Source: a virus (Duplodnaviria > Caudoviricetes). From it: 52,837 bases of DNA. The translations under genes and the position numbers were made by a program. How positions within the stretch are numbered: position 1 is the stretch's first letter; each line of letters begins with the position of its first letter. Below the pieces are notes generated by a model. It did not search any database. It saw only the letters and a program-made list of their open reading frames with translations, and was not told the DNA's origin. Location: IMG/VR virus record IMGVR_UViG_3300002053_000024, positions 1 to 52,837 of that record; one strand, given 5' to 3'. This document shows positions 1,426 through 44,967 of this stretch, piece after piece.

Positions 1426-1440
1426 GGGGGTAGTAAAATG
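1426..1440 (+). promoter_or_regulatory. Phage-wide translation initiation motif GGGGGTAGTAAAATG (representative copy)
   Basis: Same or near-same motif before starts at 1438, 3020, 4810, 6068, 6583, 12927, 19102, 28716, 33668, 44968 (+) and 48038, 49289, 50526, 52388 (-). Confidence 0.85.
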
Positions 1441-3009
1441 GCAGGCACGATTAAAGGTGGAATGGACGAAGAAAAGCTTATCGAAACCAATTCGCTTTGG
1501 GATTTGTACTATTATGAATGGGTTTTTCTTAACGCCGCCTACGAAGGTGCGCGCGCGTTAATCAAGTTGGGCGCATTGTACCGGCACGAACGCGAAAGCA
1601 CAACGAACTATCAGCGCCGCGCAAACGAAGCATACGGTTTGTCGTATTCGCGAAGCATTATCGAAATATTGAATAGCTTTTTATTCAAAAACGAATTCGA
1701 CAGGCAGTTGGCAGAAAAGCTTGCTAACGATCCGCTTTTTCTTCTGTTTATGTCCGATTGCAATTTGCAGGGAACAAGTTTCGACCAGTTTTTTATCAAC
1801 TGGCAAAAAATGAGTTCGATCCAAGGTCACGCGGGAATACTGGTAGATAAACCTTTTTCTTCCGTTGCTACCCGACAAGAAGAAATAGACAAGCGCGTAT
1901 ATCCTTATTTGGCGGGCTATGCCCCGACTAACATACTAGATTGGGAATGGGAACGCGACGAATTCAACCGTCCATATCTAAGCTATTTGAAAGTAATTGA
2001 CAATGACGGGCAGTATAGAATATGGACAACCGAATATTGGGAAGTATGGGAATTGGCGGAAACCGAAGCGACCGTAGCAATTTCCCAAGAGCAGGCAACC
2101 CAAGTATCGATTACCGGAATACCCCCGAAAAGCCAAGCTGTAGGTCGTGCGGCGAATCTTATAAATGAAGGGGAAAACCAATTAGGCGAAATCCCTTTTA
2201 TTTGGCTTTTCAATGCTAGAAGTACTATCGATCCCGAAGTTGGCGTTAGCGACATTACCGATATAGCGCGAATTGATGCTTCGATTATCCGCAACCTTTC
2301 GCAGATAGAAGAAATTATCGACTACGCGGCTTTTCCAATGATGCGTATGCCTATGAAGGAAGCAGGCGCAGTAGATAAAAAGGACGAAGTGGGCGTAGTC
2401 GCCGTTTTGGAATTTGACCCCGAAAATCCAGATAGTAAACCAGATTGGTTGGATTCATCCGTAGCCGAACCGGTGGACGCAACGCTTTCGTTGATAGCGA
2501 AAAAGATAGAAGAAATATACCGTAGCAGTAATATAGGGGGTTTGGCAGCTACGGAAATTTCTTCGCAGGCCAAAAGTGGAGTAGCATTAAAAACTGAATT
2601 CCAGATGCTTAACAGTAAATTGGTGCAGAAGGGAAAGAACGTAGCAAAAGCGGAACGTGAAGCAATTAGGCTTTGGTTGAAATGGCAGAACATGGAAGAA
2701 CTAAACAAAGATACCCAAATAGGATCACCAGATACGTACGAAATCGAAGACCTTGCGGCAGACCTTGAAAACATGATGACAGGGGGAACTATCGTTAGCG
2801 GAAGTGAAACGTTTAAAAAGGAACTTCAAAAAGCAACGGTTCGAATGTTACTGCCAAGCTTGGATACGAAAATGCTATCAAAGATTGACAAAGAAATAGA
2901 CGCGGGCAAGCTTCCGACCATATCAAGTTCGCTATCAAGGGCGCGCGACCTATCGCAGCAGGGACGCGAAGATGAAGAATTCGAAGAAGAACCCGTAGAA
3001 GAAGAATAG
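1438..3009 (+). CDS. Portal protein
   Basis: Follows TerL; 523 aa; GHAGILVD, NQLGEIPFIWLFN and KSGVALK motifs typical of SPP1-like portals; acidic C-tail. Confidence 0.9.
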   Translation: MAGTIKGGMDEEKLIETNSLWDLYYYEWVFLNAAYEGARALIKLGALYRHERESTTNYQRRANEAYGLSYSRSIIEILNSFLFKNEFDRQLAEKLANDPLFLLFMSDCNLQGTSFDQFFINWQKMSSIQGHAGILVDKPFSSVATRQEEIDKRVYPYLAGYAPTNILDWEWERDEFNRPYLSYLKVIDNDGQYRIWTTEYWEVWELAETEATVAISQEQATQVSITGIPPKSQAVGRAANLINEGENQLGEIPFIWLFNARSTIDPEVGVSDITDIARIDASIIRNLSQIEEIIDYAAFPMMRMPMKEAGAVDKKDEVGVVAVLEFDPENPDSKPDWLDSSVAEPVDATLSLIAKKIEEIYRSSNIGGLAATEISSQAKSGVALKTEFQMLNSKLVQKGKNVAKAEREAIRLWLKWQNMEELNKDTQIGSPDTYEIEDLAADLENMMTGGTIVSGSETFKKELQKATVRMLLPSLDTKMLSKIDKEIDAGKLPTISSSLSRARDLSQQGREDEEFEEEPVEEE

Positions 3010-3019
3010 GGGGTAGCAA

Positions 3020-4786
3020 ATGCCAAGGATCATACGGACAAATAAACCCGTAAAGCGTCTTAGCATCCCAAGACCGCCGAAGCAGACCTATCGTAAGCAT
3101 GGTTTATCACATGGCAGCGCGGGGCGTTGGAAGACAGCGGAAGAAATAACGTATCCTGCTTATGTATGCGTTGCCGCCGATTACTTGGTGGATGGATACG
3201 AAGACCCTAACGGCAACGGCGGTTCGTTTTTTGGATACACCGGGGGGAACCAATCATGGGGGCAATCGTTTCTTGGCAATGGTGAATATCTGAAACGTGT
3301 CGGCGTACAATTATTTAGGCGCAACGATCCCCCCGACGCGAACGTTATATGTAGTATTTTCGCCCATAGCGGAACGTTTGGCTCTACCGGCGTGCCTACG
3401 GGAAGTGCGTTGGCAACTGCTTCCATTCCTTCCGGTAGGTTGAATCAAAATGCTACTCAGGATTTCCAATGGGAATACTTTGACTTCGACGGGACGCTGC
3501 AATTAGCAGATGGAACCCCATACTTCCTTGCAATCAGCGTTGATACCCCCGGCCCGAATAGTTCTAATTCTCATGGCATAGGTTGGGATAATAGTAGTCC
3601 TGTAGCCCCCGGTAATAGTGCTTTTCAAAATGCGGCCCTTTCTTGGGCCGCTTATCCTACTTCCGATTTGATGTTTGCTATTTGGACGGACGAAGCCAAA
3701 GACGCAGCGGACGTTAAGCCGTGGAATATCTATCCAATCTTGGGCAGTTATAATAATACAGGGGCCGTAACGGTTACGGGAAGAAATTATAGACAGTTGT
3801 ACTTGCCTTCTAGCACCGGACTAGGGCAAATGTCTACTTTACTATGTTTGGCAAGAATCCGCGTACAGGTATTTAACGATAATGGCGCTGCTGTTAACGT
3901 AGATTCACTTTACTTCGGGGAATACAGCGGAGCAGGCGGCAACTTCGCAGCAACCCCAACGCAAATTACTTTCGATGGTGCTTCCGGTTTTGTACTAGAC
4001 CCCGGCGAAACCCGTTGGTCGGATTGGGTAGATGTAAGTTGGCCGGGGACAACGGAAAACGGTTGGTTGTTTGCTTTCAAGTTTAGCAATAGCCCTTTTT
4101 CTGCCGTTACCCCGCGAACGCAGCCGGTTGTTTCCGTTGGTTGGTATAAGACCGACAGCGCGGACGAAAGTAGTTTGGTTACAATAAGCGGCTATAGTGA
4201 TGATACGGGGGGTACTCAAAGCAAATTGGTTGTCGCCGTACAGGGGCAAGCCGGTACGGACGTTTTTACTACCGCTTATCTAATGTCACAACTGGCAAGC
4301 CCCGGCGGGCCGTTTTCACAATTCAACGATGTAAACGTACGGCAGATTTTCCAAGCTTCGAATTTAACCGATATAGGAATAACCCCAACCCAAGTTCGGT
4401 TTTTACTATACGGTAGAAGTTCCGGTTTAAGCGGGGTTGAAAGTATGTACGTTGGATATCCCAACTTGCCGTGGGGCGCAGGCGAAGCAAATTTCAACGC
4501 CGCACCGGTTCCAGTTATTACTAGCAGATTTTCACTTCAAGCCGACGAATACCGTTGGACAGAATGGATAGATTTCGTTGTGGACGGTACAGATGATATT
4601 ATGATAGCACTTCGGGTTATCGATGGACGTACACAATTTAGCTTTGACAGCCCATTTACACCGGGGGGCGACGGGTACATTAGAACAAAGACCGGCGCGG
4701 ACGAAAGTAGTTTGCAGAATGTAACCGGATATGCCTACCCAAGTATCGACGATTTTGTGATGGTCATACGGATGGAGTCAAGATAA
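3020..4786 (+). CDS. Beta-rich multi-domain protein, probably virion-associated, with an internal duplication
   Basis: Basic N-terminus followed by G/S/T/aromatic-rich domains; two related modules (GETRWSDWVD..KTDSADESSL..SGY vs DEYRWTEWID..KTGADESSL..TGY). Confidence 0.6.
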   Translation: MPRIIRTNKPVKRLSIPRPPKQTYRKHGLSHGSAGRWKTAEEITYPAYVCVAADYLVDGYEDPNGNGGSFFGYTGGNQSWGQSFLGNGEYLKRVGVQLFRRNDPPDANVICSIFAHSGTFGSTGVPTGSALATASIPSGRLNQNATQDFQWEYFDFDGTLQLADGTPYFLAISVDTPGPNSSNSHGIGWDNSSPVAPGNSAFQNAALSWAAYPTSDLMFAIWTDEAKDAADVKPWNIYPILGSYNNTGAVTVTGRNYRQLYLPSSTGLGQMSTLLCLARIRVQVFNDNGAAVNVDSLYFGEYSGAGGNFAATPTQITFDGASGFVLDPGETRWSDWVDVSWPGTTENGWLFAFKFSNSPFSAVTPRTQPVVSVGWYKTDSADESSLVTISGYSDDTGGTQSKLVVAVQGQAGTDVFTTAYLMSQLASPGGPFSQFNDVNVRQIFQASNLTDIGITPTQVRFLLYGRSSGLSGVESMYVGYPNLPWGAGEANFNAAPVPVITSRFSLQADEYRWTEWIDFVVDGTDDIMIALRVIDGRTQFSFDSPFTPGGDGYIRTKTGADESSLQNVTGYAYPSIDDFVMVIRMESR

Positions 4787-4809
4787 ACAAAAGCAAAGGG
4801 GGTAGTAAA

Positions 4810-5223
4810 ATGAAACGTTACAAAAACTTTTTTAATTTGTTAGCGACTTTGATTATCGTTCTTCTTTTTGGCCTGCTGCTAATTCCTATGGCGCAGGCAG
4901 ACGATAAAAGCGTTACGTTTGCATGGGATTACCCGACCGATTACGACCAGATAACCCATTGGAAGCTATATTGGGGGACGCAGGCGGGCGGGCCTTATGA
5001 AACGGGCGAAGCGCAAATCAATAAATCCATGTTAGGAAGTACTACCCAAACGGATATTGTTATTCAGTACCCGCCAAATGCGAAGACCACGTATTATTAC
5101 GTATTGGTAGCATTTAAAGACGAACTTTACAGCGCGAATAGCAACGAAGTATCGGTAGAAGGGGATTTTCGCGAAAACCCCCTAGCCCCCCTTCAACTTC
5201 GGGTAATTTTATCAGGCGGTTGA
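4810..5223 (+). CDS. Signal-peptide protein with a single fibronectin type III-like domain
   Basis: Hydrophobic leader ending AQA; VTFAWD..WKLYWGT..GPY..TTYYYVLVAF..SANSNEVS Fn3 pattern. Confidence 0.75.
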   Translation: MKRYKNFFNLLATLIIVLLFGLLLIPMAQADDKSVTFAWDYPTDYDQITHWKLYWGTQAGGPYETGEAQINKSMLGSTTQTDIVIQYPPNAKTTYYYVLVAFKDELYSANSNEVSVEGDFRENPLAPLQLRVILSGG

Positions 5224-5254
5224 TTGCTTGGTTGTTGGAGTTGTTGGGGATAAA

Positions 5255-5726
5255 ATGAATAGTAATTACCCACGATTACGAAACATACTTTACGAAATCC
5301 TAACGGCGGGCGTCGATAGCGAACCTTCCGATATTACGGCTTTGCAGAATATGGGGGTTTCGCTATCTCCTGCCGATAACCAAAGTAACCGAAGCATTAA
5401 AGCTTTTAGACATTATCGACGCGCAGGCAGAACCCGAATTAGTTTTAGAAGCAGAAATTCCGTCGTCGATACCGAATATAAGGGAATTTATCGAAGAACG
5501 GTTGGAAAGGGAAATGTCACTAACCGGTTTTCTTCGTTTTATGGAAGTACTTTATATAATGATAGCAATAGAAACCTTGGGCGAAACAGAAACCAAACGC
5601 GTTCTACGTGTCCGCGAACAACGCATAGCGGCAGCGAAGGCGCAGAAAGGGACGGTAGAAAATGTCAGTAGTCAAACGCGGGGGGCGTTATTGAGTCGTG
5701 CATGGGCATCCCAAGAAAGCGGGTAG
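5255..5726 (+). CDS. Hypothetical helical protein with an apparent +1 frameshift at G5 (5353-5357)
   Basis: The frame from ATG 5255 reads protein-like up to ALQNMG; the +1 frame then continues FRYLLPITKVTEALKLLDIIDAQAEPEL..., while the original frame becomes R/S-rich off-frame-type text. Confidence 0.55.
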
Positions 5727-5847
5727 CAAAAGGGATAAGCCGAAGGGTTCGGCGATTAAATGCTACCCCGGCAATAAGGCAGGCTTGAAGAAAGCCCGCG
5801 CTATGCACTATGCTATTAGAATGTCGCAGGCACGAAGGGGGGGATAA
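5662..5847 (+). CDS. Small basic protein with in-frame TGA (candidate selenoprotein A, 61 aa)
   Basis: GGTAGAAAATG start; MSVVKRGGRY-[TGA 5692-5694]-VVHGHPKKAGSKRDKPKGSAIKCYPGNKAGLKKARAMHYAIRMSQARRGG*; frame stays open for 50 codons after the TGA. Confidence 0.6.
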
Positions 5848-5848
5848 C

Positions 5849-5917
5849 GTGGCGAAATCATGCGGCAGTAAAAAGAAGACCAAATCGAAGAAAGGAAAGA
5901 AAAAATGGCGCAAGTAG
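5849..5917 (+). CDS. Lys-rich microprotein (22 aa)
   Basis: GGGGGGGATAAC-GTG start; MAKSCGSKKKTKSKKGKKKWRK*; fills the gap between neighbours. Confidence 0.5.
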   Translation: MAKSCGSKKKTKSKKGKKKWRK

Positions 5918-6057
5918 GAAATCCGCAGCCCAATCAAGGCTTAGCAAGTCCGGTTAACCGTTCGTTGGCAACCCAAAAGGAAACCAACGTTAAACCTACA
6001 AAATGGATCAAGCGCAAAACCGGCGTTGTTAAGCCTGCAATCCCTAAAATGAAATAG
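5905..6057 (+). CDS. Small basic protein (50 aa)
   Basis: AAAGGA RBS; MAQVGNPQPNQGLASPVNRSLATQKETNVKPTKWIKRKTGVVKPAIPKMK*; its stop runs into the next RBS motif. Confidence 0.6.
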   Translation: MAQVGNPQPNQGLASPVNRSLATQKETNVKPTKWIKRKTGVVKPAIPKMK

Positions 6058-6067
6058 GGGGTAGTAA

Positions 6068-6250
6068 ATGGCGAAGCTACGCAAGGCCAAAAGCAAGTCG
6101 CAGGCGTGCGCTATCGGTTTTTCCAAAGCGCGCAAGGCAGGCGTATCCGGTAAATCAGCAGGCGCGGCTTGAGGAAAAGAAATGAAGCTTTTCCGGTCGG
6201 GAAAAGCAAGCCCGCGCAAGCTAGTTTTACCGCGCAAACGGAAGAAGTAA
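6068..6250 (+). CDS. Small basic protein with in-frame TGA and SECIS-like hairpin (candidate selenoprotein B, 60 aa)
   Basis: GGGGGTAGTAAATG start; MAKLRKAKSKSQACAIGFSKARKAGVSGKSAGAA-[TGA 6170-6172]-GKEMKLFRSGKASPRKLVLPRKRKK*. Confidence 0.65.
6187..6207 (+). promoter_or_regulatory. Bacterial SECIS-like hairpin GCTTTTCC-GGTCG-GGAAAAGC
   Basis: Perfect 8-bp stem; apical loop begins GGUC 22 nt after the in-frame UGA (E. coli fdhF SECIS loop is A-GGUC-U). Confidence 0.6.
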
Positions 6251-6259
6251 TGCTATTTT

Positions 6260-6553
6260 ATGACAGATGCACCGACGCTATCATTCGAAGAAAAGCGAAC
6301 TATCCGAAAGCAGATAAAACGCATAGGGGTAATTCGCTTTTTAGAAGAAGTCGCCAATATGTGCTTTGGCGAAGCCGAACGATTACGCCTGCATTGGGGC
6401 GATCCGCAATTTGCTAAGGTTTGGGCGCGTCGTGCGGAACTGTTTCATAGAATAGTTAGCAGTTTGCGCGAAGAAGAATTAACCGATCCACGACCAAAAA
6501 GGGTAGTAAAATCGAAATTCCCTTTGTTGGAATACTTTCGCAAAAGTGGCTGA
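6260..6553 (+). CDS. Hypothetical protein (97 aa)
   Basis: ORF in operon orientation with host-genome-typical codon use. Confidence 0.6.
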   Translation: MTDAPTLSFEEKRTIRKQIKRIGVIRFLEEVANMCFGEAERLRLHWGDPQFAKVWARRAELFHRIVSSLREEELTDPRPKRVVKSKFPLLEYFRKSG

Positions 6554-6582
6554 AATAATCAAGCTATCCGAAGGGGGTAGTA

Positions 6583-7011
6583 ATGGGCTTTCTAATGAAG
6601 GAAGAAGGGGGCGAAAGAAAGCTAAATATCGTCAACCTTTTAATCGCCGCTATAGTCGGCGTAGGCGTGCTATTAGGTGCGGGTTGGGGCGCACGCGAAT
6701 ACATGGACACGTACTGTACCGATAGCGAATTGCACGCGGCAGAAGTAAAGCTATCCGATAAAGACGCGGAATTGAAGAATTCCATTGCGGGGCTTTCCCG
6801 GCAGATAAACCAACAAAGTATTTTGATGCGTATTCGCGAATTGGAATCGCGCTTGGCGGACGCGGAAAAAACTTGCCCGCCCGATCCGCTTCATAATAGC
6901 AATTGCCCGCGCAGAATCAAATCCGACTATGAAGACGATTTGCGCGAATTAAATAAGCTACGTGACTTTATGCGGAAACTGGAAGAAAAGAACTTATTGG
7001 AAGCGCAATAA
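6583..7011 (+). CDS. Single-TM, coiled-coil membrane protein
   Basis: RBS motif; hydrophobic IVNLLIAAIVGVGVLLGAGWGA followed by a coiled coil with a Cys pair. Confidence 0.65.
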   Translation: MGFLMKEEGGERKLNIVNLLIAAIVGVGVLLGAGWGAREYMDTYCTDSELHAAEVKLSDKDAELKNSIAGLSRQINQQSILMRIRELESRLADAEKTCPPDPLHNSNCPRRIKSDYEDDLRELNKLRDFMRKLEEKNLLEAQ

Positions 7012-10000
7012 ATGGCACGCGACGTTGCAAAGATAGTAGAAAATACAGACGATTTCCTTAATCGGAATATCGACGGGCATCAACTACGTTTGCAAAAATC
7101 TATCGAAGACTTGGAAAAGCGTGTTATCAACCAAGTAAATTCGTTGCAAACAAACGCAGCGGGTAACTTGCTTGGGCCGAAGGTGAATTTAAAGCAGGCG
7201 CAGAAAGTACACAAGCAACTTACCGGGATTTTCGATAGTACTTATGGGGCAGGCGTGCGCGACGTTGTGGCAGGCTATGACGATGCCGCCGAACACGTTC
7301 TTACTTCGTATCGGGGTTTGGGCGTAGCTGCTAATTTCACCGGACAGGATAAAGCCCTTATCGATACATTGAAAGGAATTGACTTCGATAATTTTATGAA
7401 CTTGGGCCAAAGCGTAAACGAAGAAATCGTGCAGGCTATGTATAATGCCGTAGCAGGCGGGGCTTCGTTCGATTCGCTTTTAACGGCAGTAAAAGGAAAA
7501 CTAACCGGAAGCGTAGATGCCGCAGGCCGATCAATGGTTATCCATGCAAAGACATTAACCAACGATGCGTTAATGAATTTTCACAACCAAGTAAACCTTA
7601 ATCAAGCTAACGCCGCAGGCTTGAAGCATTTTCTTTACGTCGGCAACGTGATAGGAACCACGCGTGATTTTTGCGCCAAGCGCGCAGGCAAAGTATATTC
7701 GAAGAAAGTTATAGATAGTTGGAATTTCAATTGGCAGGGCAAAAGCGGGCCTGCGTTCACGCACCGGGGCGGTTATAATTGCCGCCACCATTGGCAGGGC
7801 GTAGACCCCGATTGGGTAGAAGGGGGTAGTATAGACGTACAGCGTTGGGAAGACTTGGACATAGAAGAACGCTACGATATTCTTCGCGGTGCGCTGTCCC
7901 CTTCCGAAAAGCTATTTAAGAAACGGTTGAATCAATTTCGCTACCATTTGAAAGTAAACAAATTCGGCGCGGACGGTGCGGGCTTCAACGTAGATGGTAA
8001 CATGGCGAAAATGTGGTATAACATTCCTGCCGCCGAACGCGCGAAGTTAATAGCAAGTTGGGAAAAGTCAAAGATCAATGTACCGGACGTGATAAAACAG
8101 AATTTAACGAAGCCGCTACCGCCTGCCGACTTTGTAGAAATACCGAAAAGCGTAGTTCCCGACAAACCCCCGATAAAACCGCCGCCCGCGCCGGTTGAAC
8201 CGCCGACGAAAGTAAAACCGCCCCCGATAGAAACGAATCCAGAGGAAATAATAGTAGCACCACCCGATCAACCCGCGCCTTCTAATGCAGGCGGGTATAA
8301 TTGGGGCGAATTAGACGAAAAGCAAAAGAAGTTAATGAACAATTTGCAATGGTACGTGAAAAGCGGGAAGAAGTTAGACCCCGACGGTGCTATGGTTTAT
8401 ACGTGGGATACGTTGAGCTATGAAACCCAACAAATGAAATTGAAGCAATGGACTTCGAAAGGTTTTACTATCCCGCCCGAACTGGTAATAAAAGGCGACA
8501 GCCTTACCGAAATTAATATTATTCAACAGGCAGCAGATATAGCAGATCAACCGTCCCCGAAGCCTTGGGCTTATAAATCCCTTGACGATGCGGTAGAACA
8601 AGTTAAAAAGGAATTCAAATTTAAAGACGGGGTGGATTTCGACGGGTTCGATACGGACGCGGATAAACTACTTCTTCTAAATGACTACGGCGCACATATG
8701 AACAATGTTTTACAAAGTAACCCGAAACTGCAAAGCATTGTAAACGATTGGGGGCATGGAACCAAGCTATCTTTTGCAAACCGTAGTACTTTAGGTGGCG
8801 GTACGTTGGGGGTTTACAGCGATACCGAATTTACTTTGAAGTTAGCAGCTAAACGCGCAATGAAAAACAACGCTGCGTTTGGTAAAAATGCTTTTACGGT
8901 GGGCGACGATTTCTTTACCGTGTCCCGGCACGAATTCGGACATTACGTAGACGAAACTATTCGAACATACCAAGGGCCGTGGCAGCAGGGGGGAACGAAA
9001 GGACTTGGGTTCAATCACCAAACCGAATGGCGCAAGGTTTTTCAATCTTATAGTAAAGAAGATTGGGCCAAAATGTTTGGAAAGTATTCTTCGGACAATA
9101 AATACGAAGGTTTTGCAGAAGTCTTCGCGCTTTACACTTCGTCTGAATATAAAGCCGGTACAATGCCATATAAGATCGAAGAATATATGCACCGGTTGTT
9201 AGGCGGGCCATTAGCAGAAGCGAATCCATCAACAGTAGTAAAACCAATAAAGAAGCCTAAAGTCACAAAGTCGGCAATACCGGCAAAGCTGCAAACTGCT
9301 TTTAAGAATCCCGAACACCAAGAAATGTTTAATCAAATGTTTACGGAATACCGGGAAAAGAAGCTAACTGTAGCGGAAATAAAAAACGAAATACGCGCAC
9401 GTTGTCCTAATGTCAGAACGGCATTAAATGATTGGCAGGGTAGTACGCAAACCCCGCGTGCTTCGGCGTTGAAGTTGAAAGCTGAATTGTTAGAAAATCG
9501 TAACGACATTAAATTTTTCGCCCGTAAGGGCAATACGCTTCAAATGAGTAAGATTCAGAGAATAGCAAACGAAATGCCCGACGAAGAATATTTGCGTATT
9601 CGTGCTATTGTCCAAGAATACTACGACCGCAAGAAAACAAAAACGGTTCCGCTTTATCGCGGAACAGACGGTAGAAATTCGGGGCCAGAATTTAGGCGAC
9701 GGATTAATGATGCTAAAGCTAGCATCCCCGAAGAAAATTGGAATACTGCCGAAGTACAGATAGAAGAACCAAGTTTGACGGGTTGGAGTTCTAGCGAAGC
9801 AATAGCAGACCGTTTCGGCGTGCGTTCGGGCGGCGTTACTGCTAGCGTGGATATTCCAACGGAAGAAATATTTATTCCCGATACCCTTTGGCCTAAAGTA
9901 AGCTATTCAACAGAAAAAGAATTTGTTGTTTTTAGCAAGTTTGAAGCGAAGTATAAATTATCCGAATTCAGAAGCGGTTATAAACCAACTATAGCAAAAG

Positions 10001-10395
10001 CGGCAAATGCGGAAGCATTGGCGCAAACTTCGTTGACCTTTTCTAAAGCGGTAGAATATCAGATACCCGATTTTTCATTGGTAATAGAATCCGAATTGCA
10101 AATGAAAGAAGCTATTTCTACTTACGTTGCGAAGCAGGCCGTAGCAACAGTAAATCAAACGGGCAAATTGTCTTCCGGTAACTGGAAAGCTTTGCTATCA
10201 AAGAAGATAAAAGGTGTAAAAGACGCAATAGCAAACGACGAAACCGTTAAAATATTTAATTCTAGCATAGGTTCGGATAAGAAGGAAAAGTTTTTAGAGC
10301 TATTGGAAGAAGCTTACAAGACCGTAGATTTATCGGGCGATAAGACCGGTGGCGAAATGAAGCTATTAAATATAATCATGGAAAGCTTGACATAA
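7012..10395 (+). CDS. MuF-family minor head protein with C-terminal metallopeptidase and ADP-ribosyltransferase-like domains
   Basis: MuF motif TTRDFC..HRGGYNCRHHW; Pro-rich linker; zincin HEFGH plus EGFAEVF; ART R-S-E-like pattern LYRGT..SLTGWSSS..TEKEFVV. Confidence 0.8.
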   Translation: MARDVAKIVENTDDFLNRNIDGHQLRLQKSIEDLEKRVINQVNSLQTNAAGNLLGPKVNLKQAQKVHKQLTGIFDSTYGAGVRDVVAGYDDAAEHVLTSYRGLGVAANFTGQDKALIDTLKGIDFDNFMNLGQSVNEEIVQAMYNAVAGGASFDSLLTAVKGKLTGSVDAAGRSMVIHAKTLTNDALMNFHNQVNLNQANAAGLKHFLYVGNVIGTTRDFCAKRAGKVYSKKVIDSWNFNWQGKSGPAFTHRGGYNCRHHWQGVDPDWVEGGSIDVQRWEDLDIEERYDILRGALSPSEKLFKKRLNQFRYHLKVNKFGADGAGFNVDGNMAKMWYNIPAAERAKLIASWEKSKINVPDVIKQNLTKPLPPADFVEIPKSVVPDKPPIKPPPAPVEPPTKVKPPPIETNPEEIIVAPPDQPAPSNAGGYNWGELDEKQKKLMNNLQWYVKSGKKLDPDGAMVYTWDTLSYETQQMKLKQWTSKGFTIPPELVIKGDSLTEINIIQQAADIADQPSPKPWAYKSLDDAVEQVKKEFKFKDGVDFDGFDTDADKLLLLNDYGAHMNNVLQSNPKLQSIVNDWGHGTKLSFANRSTLGGGTLGVYSDTEFTLKLAAKRAMKNNAAFGKNAFTVGDDFFTVSRHEFGHYVDETIRTYQGPWQQGGTKGLGFNHQTEWRKVFQSYSKEDWAKMFGKYSSDNKYEGFAEVFALYTSSEYKAGTMPYKIEEYMHRLLGGPLAEANPSTVVKPIKKPKVTKSAIPAKLQTAFKNPEHQEMFNQMFTEYREKKLTVAEIKNEIRARCPNVRTALNDWQGSTQTPRASALKLKAELLENRNDIKFFARKGNTLQMSKIQRIANEMPDEEYLRIRAIVQEYYDRKKTKTVPLYRGTDGRNSGPEFRRRINDAKASIPEENWNTAEVQIEEPSLTGWSSSEAIADRFGVRSGGVTASVDIPTEEIFIPDTLWPKVSYSTEKEFVVFSKFEAKYKLSEFRSGYKPTIAKAANAEALAQTSLTFSKAVEYQIPDFSLVIESELQMKEAISTYVAKQAVATVNQTGKLSSGNWKALLSKKIKGVKDAIANDETVKIFNSSIGSDKKEKFLELLEEAYKTVDLSGDKTGGEMKLLNIIMESLT

Positions 10396-28300: not shown

Positions 28301-28711
28301 ATGGCAGAAGAACAATTCCCGCATATAGTACTACCGGAATACGAAGGCCCGGAACGAAGGCGGACGTACCAATGCTTCTGTCATCCTAAACACCAAAAAG
28401 CTATTACTACGTTGGAAAAGCGCATGGATAAAAACGAAGACAGATTGGGCGGTACTGTACCGTGGAAAATATTTATTCCGATTATGGCCCCGCTAATGCT
28501 ATTGTTTGTCGCTGCGCTTTGGGGGATATTCGACAAGATATCCCAAATAAACGCAGATATGGCGGCTTTAAACACGCGTGCTATAACAACAGAAGAAAGG
28601 GTTGAACGAACGAACAATAAGATAGACAAATTGCACGACCAGATAGAAACGATAAAAGTCGAAATGCGGAAGTTAAACGGACACCATAAAGCAGGGGAAG
28701 CAGGGGGGTAG
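28301..28711 (+). CDS. Single-TM coiled-coil membrane protein (possible lysis accessory)
   Basis: YEGPERR motif, TM segment WKIFIPIMAPLMLLFVAALWGIF, coiled coil. Confidence 0.55.
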   Translation: MAEEQFPHIVLPEYEGPERRRTYQCFCHPKHQKAITTLEKRMDKNEDRLGGTVPWKIFIPIMAPLMLLFVAALWGIFDKISQINADMAALNTRAITTEERVERTNNKIDKLHDQIETIKVEMRKLNGHHKAGEAGG

Positions 28712-28715
28712 TAAA

Positions 28716-33003: not shown

Positions 33004-33664
33004 CATAATAATTCCGGTTCTGAATTCGCATGAGGTAGTAAAACGACAAATGCTTTATTGGAATACGTTAGACCTTTGTTGCTGCGAAATAATTCTGGTA
33101 GACGATGGAAGTACCCCGCCTATATTGCCTTACTTCGATTCGAAATACGAACTAACGGTTATCTATACAAACGATCCGCGCCCTTGGTCGCAACCTTGTG
33201 CGCGCAATCGGGGTGCAGAAATATCACGATCCGAAATGCTACTTATGACAGACATAGACCATATTATTTCGCAGGAACAAATAAACGCGGGGAAAGCATT
33301 TAATGGGGACAAAATGATATTCCCGCGCCAATGGGCGGTATTGGATACAGCGGGCGGACTACACCAAGAAAAAGAAGTACTATTACAATATGGATTAGAC
33401 CCCAAGCTTTACGAACAACGCGGTCTTAGCGGCGGTTCGCACGCCAATACTTTTTGTATGCAGAAAAGTATTTTCGACGAACTAGGCGGGTATGATGAAA
33501 GCTTTTGTGGAAAATACGGGGGCGACGATACGGATTTTAACGACCGATACGGTCGATTGCATAGACAAGGGCTAGTGGCGCGGCACGTTGTAGGCCCGCG
33601 AATGTTTGTGTTTCCCGATCCGCGAAGGGACGCACAAAACCTTTTTCATTCTTTAAGGGGGTAG
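32984..33664 (+). CDS. GT2 family glycosyltransferase
   Basis: LSIIIPVLN, EIILVDDGS, ARNRGA, MTDID, GGYDESF..YGGDDTDF. Confidence 0.9.
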   Translation: MEEYDLSIIIPVLNSHEVVKRQMLYWNTLDLCCCEIILVDDGSTPPILPYFDSKYELTVIYTNDPRPWSQPCARNRGAEISRSEMLLMTDIDHIISQEQINAGKAFNGDKMIFPRQWAVLDTAGGLHQEKEVLLQYGLDPKLYEQRGLSGGSHANTFCMQKSIFDELGGYDESFCGKYGGDDTDFNDRYGRLHRQGLVARHVVGPRMFVFPDPRRDAQNLFHSLRG

Positions 33665-33667
33665 TAA

Positions 33668-44589: not shown

Positions 44590-44964
44590 TTGAAGCGAAG
44601 AACAATCGTTCCAATTCTTCTACTTGTGCTGTTTGTCTTCGTGTCGTGTTCTGGTATGCAGTTGGGCGCGCCCGACGATTCGCCCAAGCTAAAGCAGGAA
44701 AAAGCATACTTGGCGGCGCGGAAAGAATTCGCCTTAACGTTGAAGAAATACAACGATTACTACGATAGGGCGGACGCGGCAACCAAAGCCAAGTGGAAGG
44801 AACAAATCGACCCCCTATTTCAGAAAACCGATAAAGCGTTGAAGGCGTGGAAACTTGCTATAGATGAAGGCTTCGACGCGACAAGTCAAGAACAGTTCTA
44901 CCTTGATATGAAAGGGGAATTGTTCATGCTACTTGTGGACGTTTTCAACTTGGAAGGGGGGTAG
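44590..44964 (+). CDS. Lipoprotein
   Basis: Basic N-terminus, hydrophobic core, lipobox FVS-C; GGGGGT RBS before the TTG start. Confidence 0.75.
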   Translation: MKRRTIVPILLLVLFVFVSCSGMQLGAPDDSPKLKQEKAYLAARKEFALTLKKYNDYYDRADAATKAKWKEQIDPLFQKTDKALKAWKLAIDEGFDATSQEQFYLDMKGELFMLLVDVFNLEGG

Positions 44965-44967
44965 TAA

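Follow-up and report, generated by a model that had tools for sequence, protein, structure and literature searches.

A small phage gene with an in-frame UGA

The DNA analysed here, called the window throughout, is a whole IMG/VR record (IMGVR_UViG_3300002053_000024), a linear tailed-phage contig of 52,837 bases that is estimated to be 62% complete. Our subject is a small gene at positions 6068-6250. It lies among the head-morphogenesis genes, with the portal on one side and a large minor-head protein on the other, and carries a UGA triplet in frame, followed closely by an RNA hairpin. The reading that we favour, with a probability of about 0.62, is that this is one phage gene for a very basic 60-amino-acid protein with selenocysteine (Sec) at residue 35, inserted by way of the host machinery. 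The hairpin would serve as the selenocysteine insertion sequence (SECIS). The features at the locus are as follows.

6057-6067, plus strand: start motif GGGGGTAGTAA, directly 5' of the ATG at 6068
6068-6250, plus strand: open reading frame (ORF) of 183 nucleotides for a small basic protein, 60 amino acids if the UGA is read through
6068-6169, plus strand: N-terminal half, 34 codons, with the DUF6496-like motif QACAIGFSKARKAG and the first conserved cysteine (TGC, 6107-6109)
6170-6172, plus strand: in-frame UGA, the proposed Sec codon, residue 35; Cys in the relatives P0002, P0004, P0005, P0006 and P0009
6173-6250, plus strand: C-terminal half, 25 codons and the TAA at 6248-6250, with the conserved E-[IM]-x5-G-x2-SPRKL
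6187-6207, plus strand: candidate bacterial SECIS, with stem GCUUUUCC (6187-6194), loop GGUCG (6195-6199) and stem GGAAAAGC (6200-6207)
6162-6217, plus strand: lower helix GCGCGGCUU / AAGC-CCGCGC (6162-6170 with 6208-6217), enclosing the UGA, a 16-nucleotide 5' internal loop and the upper hairpin
6173-6179, plus strand: GGAAAAG, able to pair with CUUUUCC at 6188-6194 in the 5' arm of the hairpin
6171-6184, plus strand: GAGGA (6171-6175), six nucleotides and AUG 6182, a possible restart for a 22-amino-acid peptide; the AUG is in frame, two nucleotides before the hairpin

The ORF at 6068 is a real gene, having both the start motif and eight relatives. The motif GGGGGTAGTAA is present at 18 sites in the window with at most one mismatch, versus 0.74 expected (examples are 1426-1436, 4798-4808, 6057-6067, 6573-6583, 28704-28714, 33657-33667 and 44957-44967). 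It often stands directly 5' of gene starts, including those of the portal at 1438 and of genes at 3020, 4810, 6068, 6583, 19102, 28716 and 33668, and it looks like a stereotyped ribosome-binding or start region for a subset of the phage genes. The window protein scores 21.4 bits against DUF6496 (PF20106), under the gathering cut-off of 24, with residues 6-26 aligned to profile positions 32-52 of 58. The N-terminal half also matches phrog_2423 (E 0.0056).

The TGA is reproducible. The 34-amino-acid product that ends at it is on record from three contigs of three sources, and a contig of 7828 bases from a different study (run X2) is identical to the window over 5650-6600. The TGA at 6170 is not an assembly slip. 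The DNA recovered from runs X4 and X6 does not extend over the TGA, X5 yielded none, and no population variation was observed in the codon.

Relatives of the encoded protein

The 60-amino-acid read-through product (P0001) was used as query in a word-indexed search and an exhaustive HMMER/phmmer search, and then in a profile search. Full-length relatives of 57-65 amino acids were P0002, P0004, P0005, P0006 and P0007 from the first searches and P0009, which was added by the profile search. Two short forms were also recovered: P0003, which is the window's own 34 amino acids, and P0008, of 39 amino acids. In total we count eight relatives, seven from the protein searches (profile-search E values of 2e-24 to 5e-8) and one gene identified in the locus L036, described below.

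All six full-length relatives span the UGA column, are gapless in the downstream part and have E-[IM]-x5-G-x2-SPRKL. A prediction made earlier from the sequence alone (the original prediction) had called for a check for cysteine at position 35 in homologs, and cysteine is indeed found there in five of the six (P0002, P0004, P0005, P0006 and P0009). In the sixth, P0007, neither conserved Cys is present, and the first of the two columns (residue 14) is occupied by Ile; bacterial DUF6496 proteins have Ile or Leu there. Thus, the Cys14 and Cys35 columns form a derived, co-occurring pair. The short form P0008, known from the protein record alone (five Logan contigs), is 74% identical to the N-terminal half of the window protein, and its last residue is one before the UGA column.

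The search of IMG/VR and Joint Genome Institute (JGI) metagenomes with the family alignment returned no match to the relatives' DNA. Further DNA searches gave only ordinary DUF6496 genes in species genomes (L005-L008) and only two contigs with P0007 in IMG/VR. Degenerate patterns for other TGA forms returned six stretches in IMG/VR and eleven in JGI metagenomes, all at chance level and none with the upstream motif; a further pattern returned one out-of-frame stretch and L036 itself. Two weak tblastn matches in the TerL-related loci described below were set aside, as the one in L046 is a Cys-free protein with a DUF6496-like motif and the one in L034 belongs to the N-terminal end of a large protein outside the family.

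A second TGA on the other cysteine column

Alignment of homologs of the large terminase (TerL) gave 80 related IMG/VR loci, and these, together with the window and L003, were searched by tblastn with eight family proteins. Family members were found in the window, L003 and L036 only. The TerL of L036 is 62% identical to that of the window, and its gene at 2839-3012 reads MAKRTLRRAKSRMQA-TGA-AIGYSKAREAG...RAC(TGT)AAEIKLFAKGKKSPRRLVLL. Here the in-frame TGA, at 2884-2886, falls on the first Cys column (residue 16), and the second column is Cys (TGT). Downstream of this TGA, no in-frame ATG, GTG or TTG comes before the last stretch of the gene, which leaves no restart that could rescue the product.

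The closest relative of each TGA-bearing gene has cysteine in both columns (P0005 for L036, P0002 for the window). Under random nonsense mutation among codons one step from a stop, and assuming two independent stops, the chance that both fall on Cys columns is about 0.005; for the window stop alone it is about 0.08.

Conservation of the downstream half

Identity to P0002 is 20 of 24 residues after the UGA, compared with 23 of 33 before it, and the phmmer alignments of P0004, P0005, P0006 and P0007 cross the UGA column. In comparison with L036, the proportion of differing nonsynonymous sites (pN) in the downstream half is 0.30 and that of synonymous sites (pS) 0.97 over 20 codons, where the synonymous sites are saturated; for the upstream half the values are 0.39 and 0.92 over 33 codons. 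This comparison cannot date the TGA. The pattern of substitution indicates that the downstream half is under protein-level constraint, which argues against an untranslated remnant.

The C-terminal 22 residues (MKLFRSGKASPRKLVLPRKRKK; 6182-6247) resemble the N-termini of large proteins encoded in the window (3020-3085) and in two related phages, L034 (2912-2980, with starts at 2912/2918) and L037 (5206). The motif common to these N-termini and the small protein is [PV][RK][RK]Lx[LIV]P[RK], no more than about 20 residues away from the Met, and it could be a docking or targeting peptide. Past its basic N-terminal motif, the 546-amino-acid protein of L034 has a long Thr-rich stretch of low complexity (repeats of TTTSTTTTTVAP, 3000-3450).

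The hairpin as a SECIS candidate

The sequence and RNAfold bear out the layout originally described, in which the UGA at 6170-6172 is followed by 14 nucleotides (6173-6186) and then by a hairpin with a GGUCG loop. The stem is a perfect helix of eight base pairs and the hairpin has a predicted energy of -12.1 kcal/mol. It is the minimum-energy structure in contexts of 46, 70 and 111 nucleotides, and its pair probabilities are 0.79-0.97 in 201 nucleotides. The loop begins 22 nucleotides past the A of the UGA, which lies, as had been claimed, inside the range for bacterial SECIS elements. A 2026 review gives a bacterial SECIS (bSECIS) model with a loop of 3-9 nucleotides, an upper stem of 4-16 base pairs, a G in the first two loop positions that is mostly followed by G or U, a loop 16-37 nucleotides from the UGA and a minimum free energy of -7.5 kcal/mol or lower (PMC13188914). 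With its five-nucleotide GGUCG loop, eight-pair stem, loop start GGU, distance of 22 nucleotides and -12.1 kcal/mol, the window hairpin falls within every one of these limits as given there. The proposal of a Sec-encoding UGA with a SECIS therefore gains the Cys column and the agreement with the bSECIS model, and is still unproven.

We scanned both strands of the window for perfect Watson-Crick hairpins of at least eight base pairs with a loop of 3-14 nucleotides, a G in the first two loop positions and a loop start 16-37 nucleotides downstream of a TGA. Comparable hairpins follow 8 of the 999 TGA triplets, and among these eight the TGA at 6170 alone is flanked on both sides by in-frame open stretches of some size. 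As a whole, the region folds no better than its dinucleotide shuffles (z of -1.47 and -1.21).

None of the six full-length relatives could encode the hairpin in the same register, whatever codons were used (0-3 contiguous pairs from the loop), and no equivalent hairpin was found in the Val-form gene of L003. Three of the four differences from P0002 after the UGA (F42, S44 and A47) are in codons that build the stem and loop. Judged from these comparisons, the predicted hairpin is specific to the UGA form.

The original prediction labelled the hairpin fdhF-like, and the loop of the Escherichia coli fdhF SECIS begins GGUC. The determinants of the E. coli element are an upper stem-loop 11 nucleotides from the UGA, a bulged U17 that SelB needs, and G23 and U24 in the apical loop (PMC8659212). 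In the window the GU of the loop is present and that part of the label holds, but the spacing is 14 nucleotides and the stem is perfect, with no bulge.

The lower helix is part of the minimum-energy folds (-27.8 kcal/mol for 70 nucleotides), with pair probabilities of 0.39-1.0, and through it the UGA comes to lie at the base of a more extended fold. It would be melted by a ribosome standing on the UGA. Rfam searches of 6140-6260 gave weak matches to the L2 leader, CRISPR-DR28 and Mico1, which are unrelated and far under their cut-offs.

It had further been suggested that CUUUUCC and GGAAAAG make the element bistable, with the SECIS fold favoured specifically during decoding, when a ribosome paused on the UGA would mask GGAAAAG. 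The complementarity exists. The bistability does not follow from it, as the alternative helix reaches -7.7 kcal/mol compared with -12.1, a deficit of 4.4 kcal/mol, and has a pair probability of 0.03 in the 201-nucleotide context. It is thus predicted to make up 3% of the ensemble even without a ribosome, and a special advantage of the SECIS fold during decoding is not supported. No switch is needed or indicated, because the SECIS-like fold dominates with or without the ribosome.

Proposed decoding and function

With a ribosome at UGA 6170, about a dozen downstream nucleotides would occupy the mRNA channel and the hairpin at 6187-6207 would stand just outside it. The GGUCG loop may then be bound by host SelB carrying Sec-tRNA(Sec), which would bring Sec into the A site while competing with release factor 2. 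After Sec, translation would continue for 25 more codons to the TAA at 6248; a shortage of selenium or SelB would instead yield the N-terminal product of 34 residues. The phage would contribute the UGA and the hairpin only, and tRNA-Sec, SelA, SelB and SelD would come from the host.

Sec35 and Cys14 would probably act as a pair, either in a selenylsulfide or disulfide or as shared metal ligands. The C-terminal motif resembles the N-terminus of the neighbouring 588-amino-acid protein, and so we infer a virion-associated role for the small protein. At somewhat better than even odds we would extend this to a family of tiny virion-module proteins in uncultured tailed phages, in which Sec may occupy either member of the Cys pair (35 in the window, 16 in L036). 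The ratio of products would be set by host SelB and selenium, and the selenylsulfide or metal site would lie in a protein that travels with the capsid or helps to build it.

Alternative explanations

To our knowledge, selenocysteine is the only mechanism that ties UGA to Cys positions. Several points weigh against it here. In L036 no hairpin of the bSECIS model follows the TGA: the best constrained fold has -6.1 kcal/mol, and a stable local hairpin starts within the UGA itself. L036 is also a single contig. The family is small (nine sequences, with DNA read for three). The hairpin lacks the 11-nucleotide spacing and bulged U specific to E. coli, and Rfam, for SECIS or any other family, has no related match at E<=10 in 6140-6260 and none at gathering score in the whole window. 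A good restart signal (GAGGA, six nucleotides, AUG 6182) stands at the UGA. The two cysteines are 20 residues apart, which is not an arrangement of the CxxU type, and the family is without a known redox function or fold. Pointers to the host are loose, namely TerL matches in Alphaproteobacteria metagenome-assembled genomes (MAGs) and cultured portal relatives at no more than 31% identity.

That restart signal, already raised with the original prediction, leads to a reading in which UGA 6170 is a true stop and translation resumes nine nucleotides on at AUG 6182, giving peptides of 34 and 22 amino acids beside a hairpin that is incidental. The Shine-Dalgarno layout is good and overlaps the stop, Met39 is common to the window and its closest relative P0002 only (all others have Ile), and such an arrangement would account for conservation downstream. 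A peptide that starts at Met39 is not absurd, because the C-half motif also heads separate large proteins (window 3020, L034 2912/2918, L037 5206). Left unaccounted for are a stop on a Cys column (about 0.08 by chance) and a SECIS-fitting hairpin (8 of 999) whose stem needs the very residues that differ from P0002. Nor would a restart explain L036, where the other Cys column holds the TGA and no in-frame start follows until near the end of the gene. In the window, the hairpin two nucleotides past AUG 6182 and the alternative helix over part of GAGGA would both hinder free initiation, and a split would leave the DUF6496-like half in one peptide and, in the other, the motif that recurs in the 588-amino-acid protein. 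We consider two separate peptides unlikely. A plain nonsense mutation, with a 34-amino-acid product that is either functional or a pseudogene remnant and 25 downstream codons that have yet to decay, seems to us a shade less likely still. It needs one change (TGC or TGT to TGA), the N-terminal half alone keeps the DUF6496-like motif, P0008 is likewise on record as a short form only, and the TGA of L036, without a consensus SECIS, could at least be a defect. The supposed remnant, however, is open, has no indels and is closer to P0002 (20 of 24) than is the translated half (23 of 33). The TGA is fixed in contigs of three sources and an independent study. Were the stop common to P0008, it would have been kept while the proteins diverged by about 26%, and still the window shows no decay. 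In each of two sublineages a stop lies on a Cys column, and the hairpin again goes unexplained.

Read-through that involves neither SECIS nor SelB could come from a near-cognate tRNA (Trp or Cys) or from an opal suppressor tRNA of the host or of the unseen 38% of the phage genome. A record that is 62% complete leaves room for a phage tRNA, and the L036 TGA without a consensus SECIS would fit. We nevertheless rate this as quite improbable, with no tRNA found in the window or L002, and with near-cognate reading giving no reason for the Cys columns or the hairpin. TGA ends 14 of the 58 ORFs in the window with normal junctions, and the long genes are intact under translation table 11, none having an in-frame TGA; genome-wide reassignment of TGA is rejected on these grounds and does not explain UGA 6170. 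A purpose of the hairpin other than decoding, as an antisense terminator or an mRNA stability element, is compatible with any of the above readings and in itself very improbable. As to the antisense terminator raised in the original prediction, the stem precedes TTCATTTCTT when read on the minus strand, and a simple terminator scan flags it. That scan finds three sites in 4500-8000 versus a shuffle mean of 5.2, which is chance level, and the stem has four G-C pairs. No supported minus-strand gene lies here, whereas homologs and the start motif support the gene on the plus strand, where there is no T-run. Selenocysteine at UGA 6170 remains the reading that we prefer.

Genomic context and source

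Other genes of the head region identified in the window are:

67-1425: large terminase (TerL)
1438-3009: portal
7012-10395: minor-head/protease-like protein of 1127 amino acids, followed by scaffold, major head, major tail and tape-measure genes

The 1127-amino-acid protein has a sub-threshold match to PF07737, of zinc-metallopeptidase type (23.4 bits versus a cut-off of 27.4, residues 636-712), and, among PHROG families, weakly matches head maturation protease. We take it for a probable large minor-head protein that contains a peptidase-like domain. Also encoded, on the minus-strand arm of the window, are RecA-like, 5'-3' exonuclease and SbcCD-like genes.

Four or five very small Lys/Arg-rich ORFs (49, about 22, 50 and 34+25 amino acids) extend across 5698-6250, in the interval that separates the portal-side genes from a 97-amino-acid ORF at 6260. 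Relatives are shown for just two of them, the UGA-containing gene and the 49-amino-acid basic ORF at 5698-5847, which has a conserved counterpart adjacent to the family gene of L036 (21 of 34 residues identical, E 6e-12). A second pair of frames joined by an in-frame TGA, 5702-5788 and 5810-5917 (TGA at 5786), is probably no gene, as it overlaps the conserved 49-amino-acid ORF in another frame. Further upstream, and by eye, the frame of the ATG at 5255 is protein-like only to about 5380; the frame of the ORF at 5502-5726 is protein-like from about 5382 on, yet its first start codon is the one at 5502. A +1 frame change in the vicinity of AAC-C-AAA (about 5378-5384) in 5255-5726 may account for this, as may a sequencing error.

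Sequencing runs that contain this DNA are labelled as marine sediment, seawater and lagoon metagenomes, and no RNA run is listed among them. Cultured phages yielded neither a DNA nor a tblastn match. A search with the portal returned one identical overlapping contig only, which ends 1.3 kb past the portal, and the portals of cultured phages are at most 31% identical (phages of Pelagibacter, Rhizobium and other proteobacteria). Among relatives of TerL, names are attached only to MAG entries of Alphaproteobacteria, which are about 61% identical. Searches for tRNA-Sec in the window and the overlapping record were negative, and no tRNA of any kind was found in the window or L002. This lack of tRNA-Sec is expected if it is the host that supplies it.

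Comparison with known systems

A few viruses redefine UGA as Sec, according to PMC8310308. No report of a phage-encoded selenoprotein was found in the literature searched, where supplements beyond our reach might list cases. A 2026 review of the prokaryotic selenoproteome does not contain the words phage, virus or viral (PMC13188914), and, according to a 2021 marine survey, the selenoprotein families that it examined have no or very few viral sequences. Neither DUF6496 nor PF20106 is named in the literature searched.

Genes of the E. coli fdhF type share with the window an in-frame UGA at the Cys position of homologs, a stem-loop downstream within the ORF, and a small loop with G and then G or U, which in the window is 22 nucleotides from the UGA, within the model range of 16-37. 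In fdhF, too, the UGA stands at the foot of a longer helix. In contrast, the window stem begins 14 rather than 11 nucleotides from the UGA and has no bulged U, and this is a phage gene, not a cellular one, for a basic 60-amino-acid peptide rather than an oxidoreductase.

The small selenoproteins known from metagenomes (GOS_A/B/C, PMC2398784; Cys-motif proteins, PMC13188914) are similar in their exchange of TGA and Cys, conservation on both sides and bSECIS-like hairpin, and likewise have few members and no known function, so far as the available text of these sources describes them. Those families are, on the same basis, mostly of the CxxU or UxxC type, whereas the two positions of the window protein are 20 residues apart and the gene lies in the structural module of a tailed phage. 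With DUF6496 (PF20106) and phrog_2423 the protein shares K-Q-A-x-A-I-G-x-S-K-A-R-K-A-G, and the bacterial members L008, P0010, P0011 and P0014 are small and basic. The bacterial DUF6496 proteins differ in having Ile or Leu in place of Cys14, the motif at the C-terminal end and no E-I-x5-G-x2-SPRKL half.

The known selenoproteins of eukaryotic viruses are homologs of glutathione peroxidase with a SECIS in the 3' untranslated region. They would share with the window gene a virus that borrows the Sec machinery of its host, but the element in the window would be of the bacterial type, within the ORF and in a phage. Stop-recoded phages reassign TAG or TGA genome-wide. They have in-frame stops in late-region genes, as the window has, but in the window one codon on a Cys column only is involved.

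If our reading is correct, a phage gene uses Sec recoding of the bacterial type, and the protein output of a phage is tied to the selenium status of its host. The family would then be a selenoprotein family whose Cys/Sec pair is unusual in its wide spacing and which lacks an oxidoreductase fold. Gene callers would cut such phage genes: the window product is recorded only in its 34-amino-acid form, and the L036 gene is absent from all of the protein-search results. Novelty would lie in the carrier, a gene of a phage structural module, and in a DUF6496-like family that may have Sec at either member of its Cys pair; the mechanism would be the ordinary bacterial one, with a SECIS in the ORF, SelB and tRNA-Sec.

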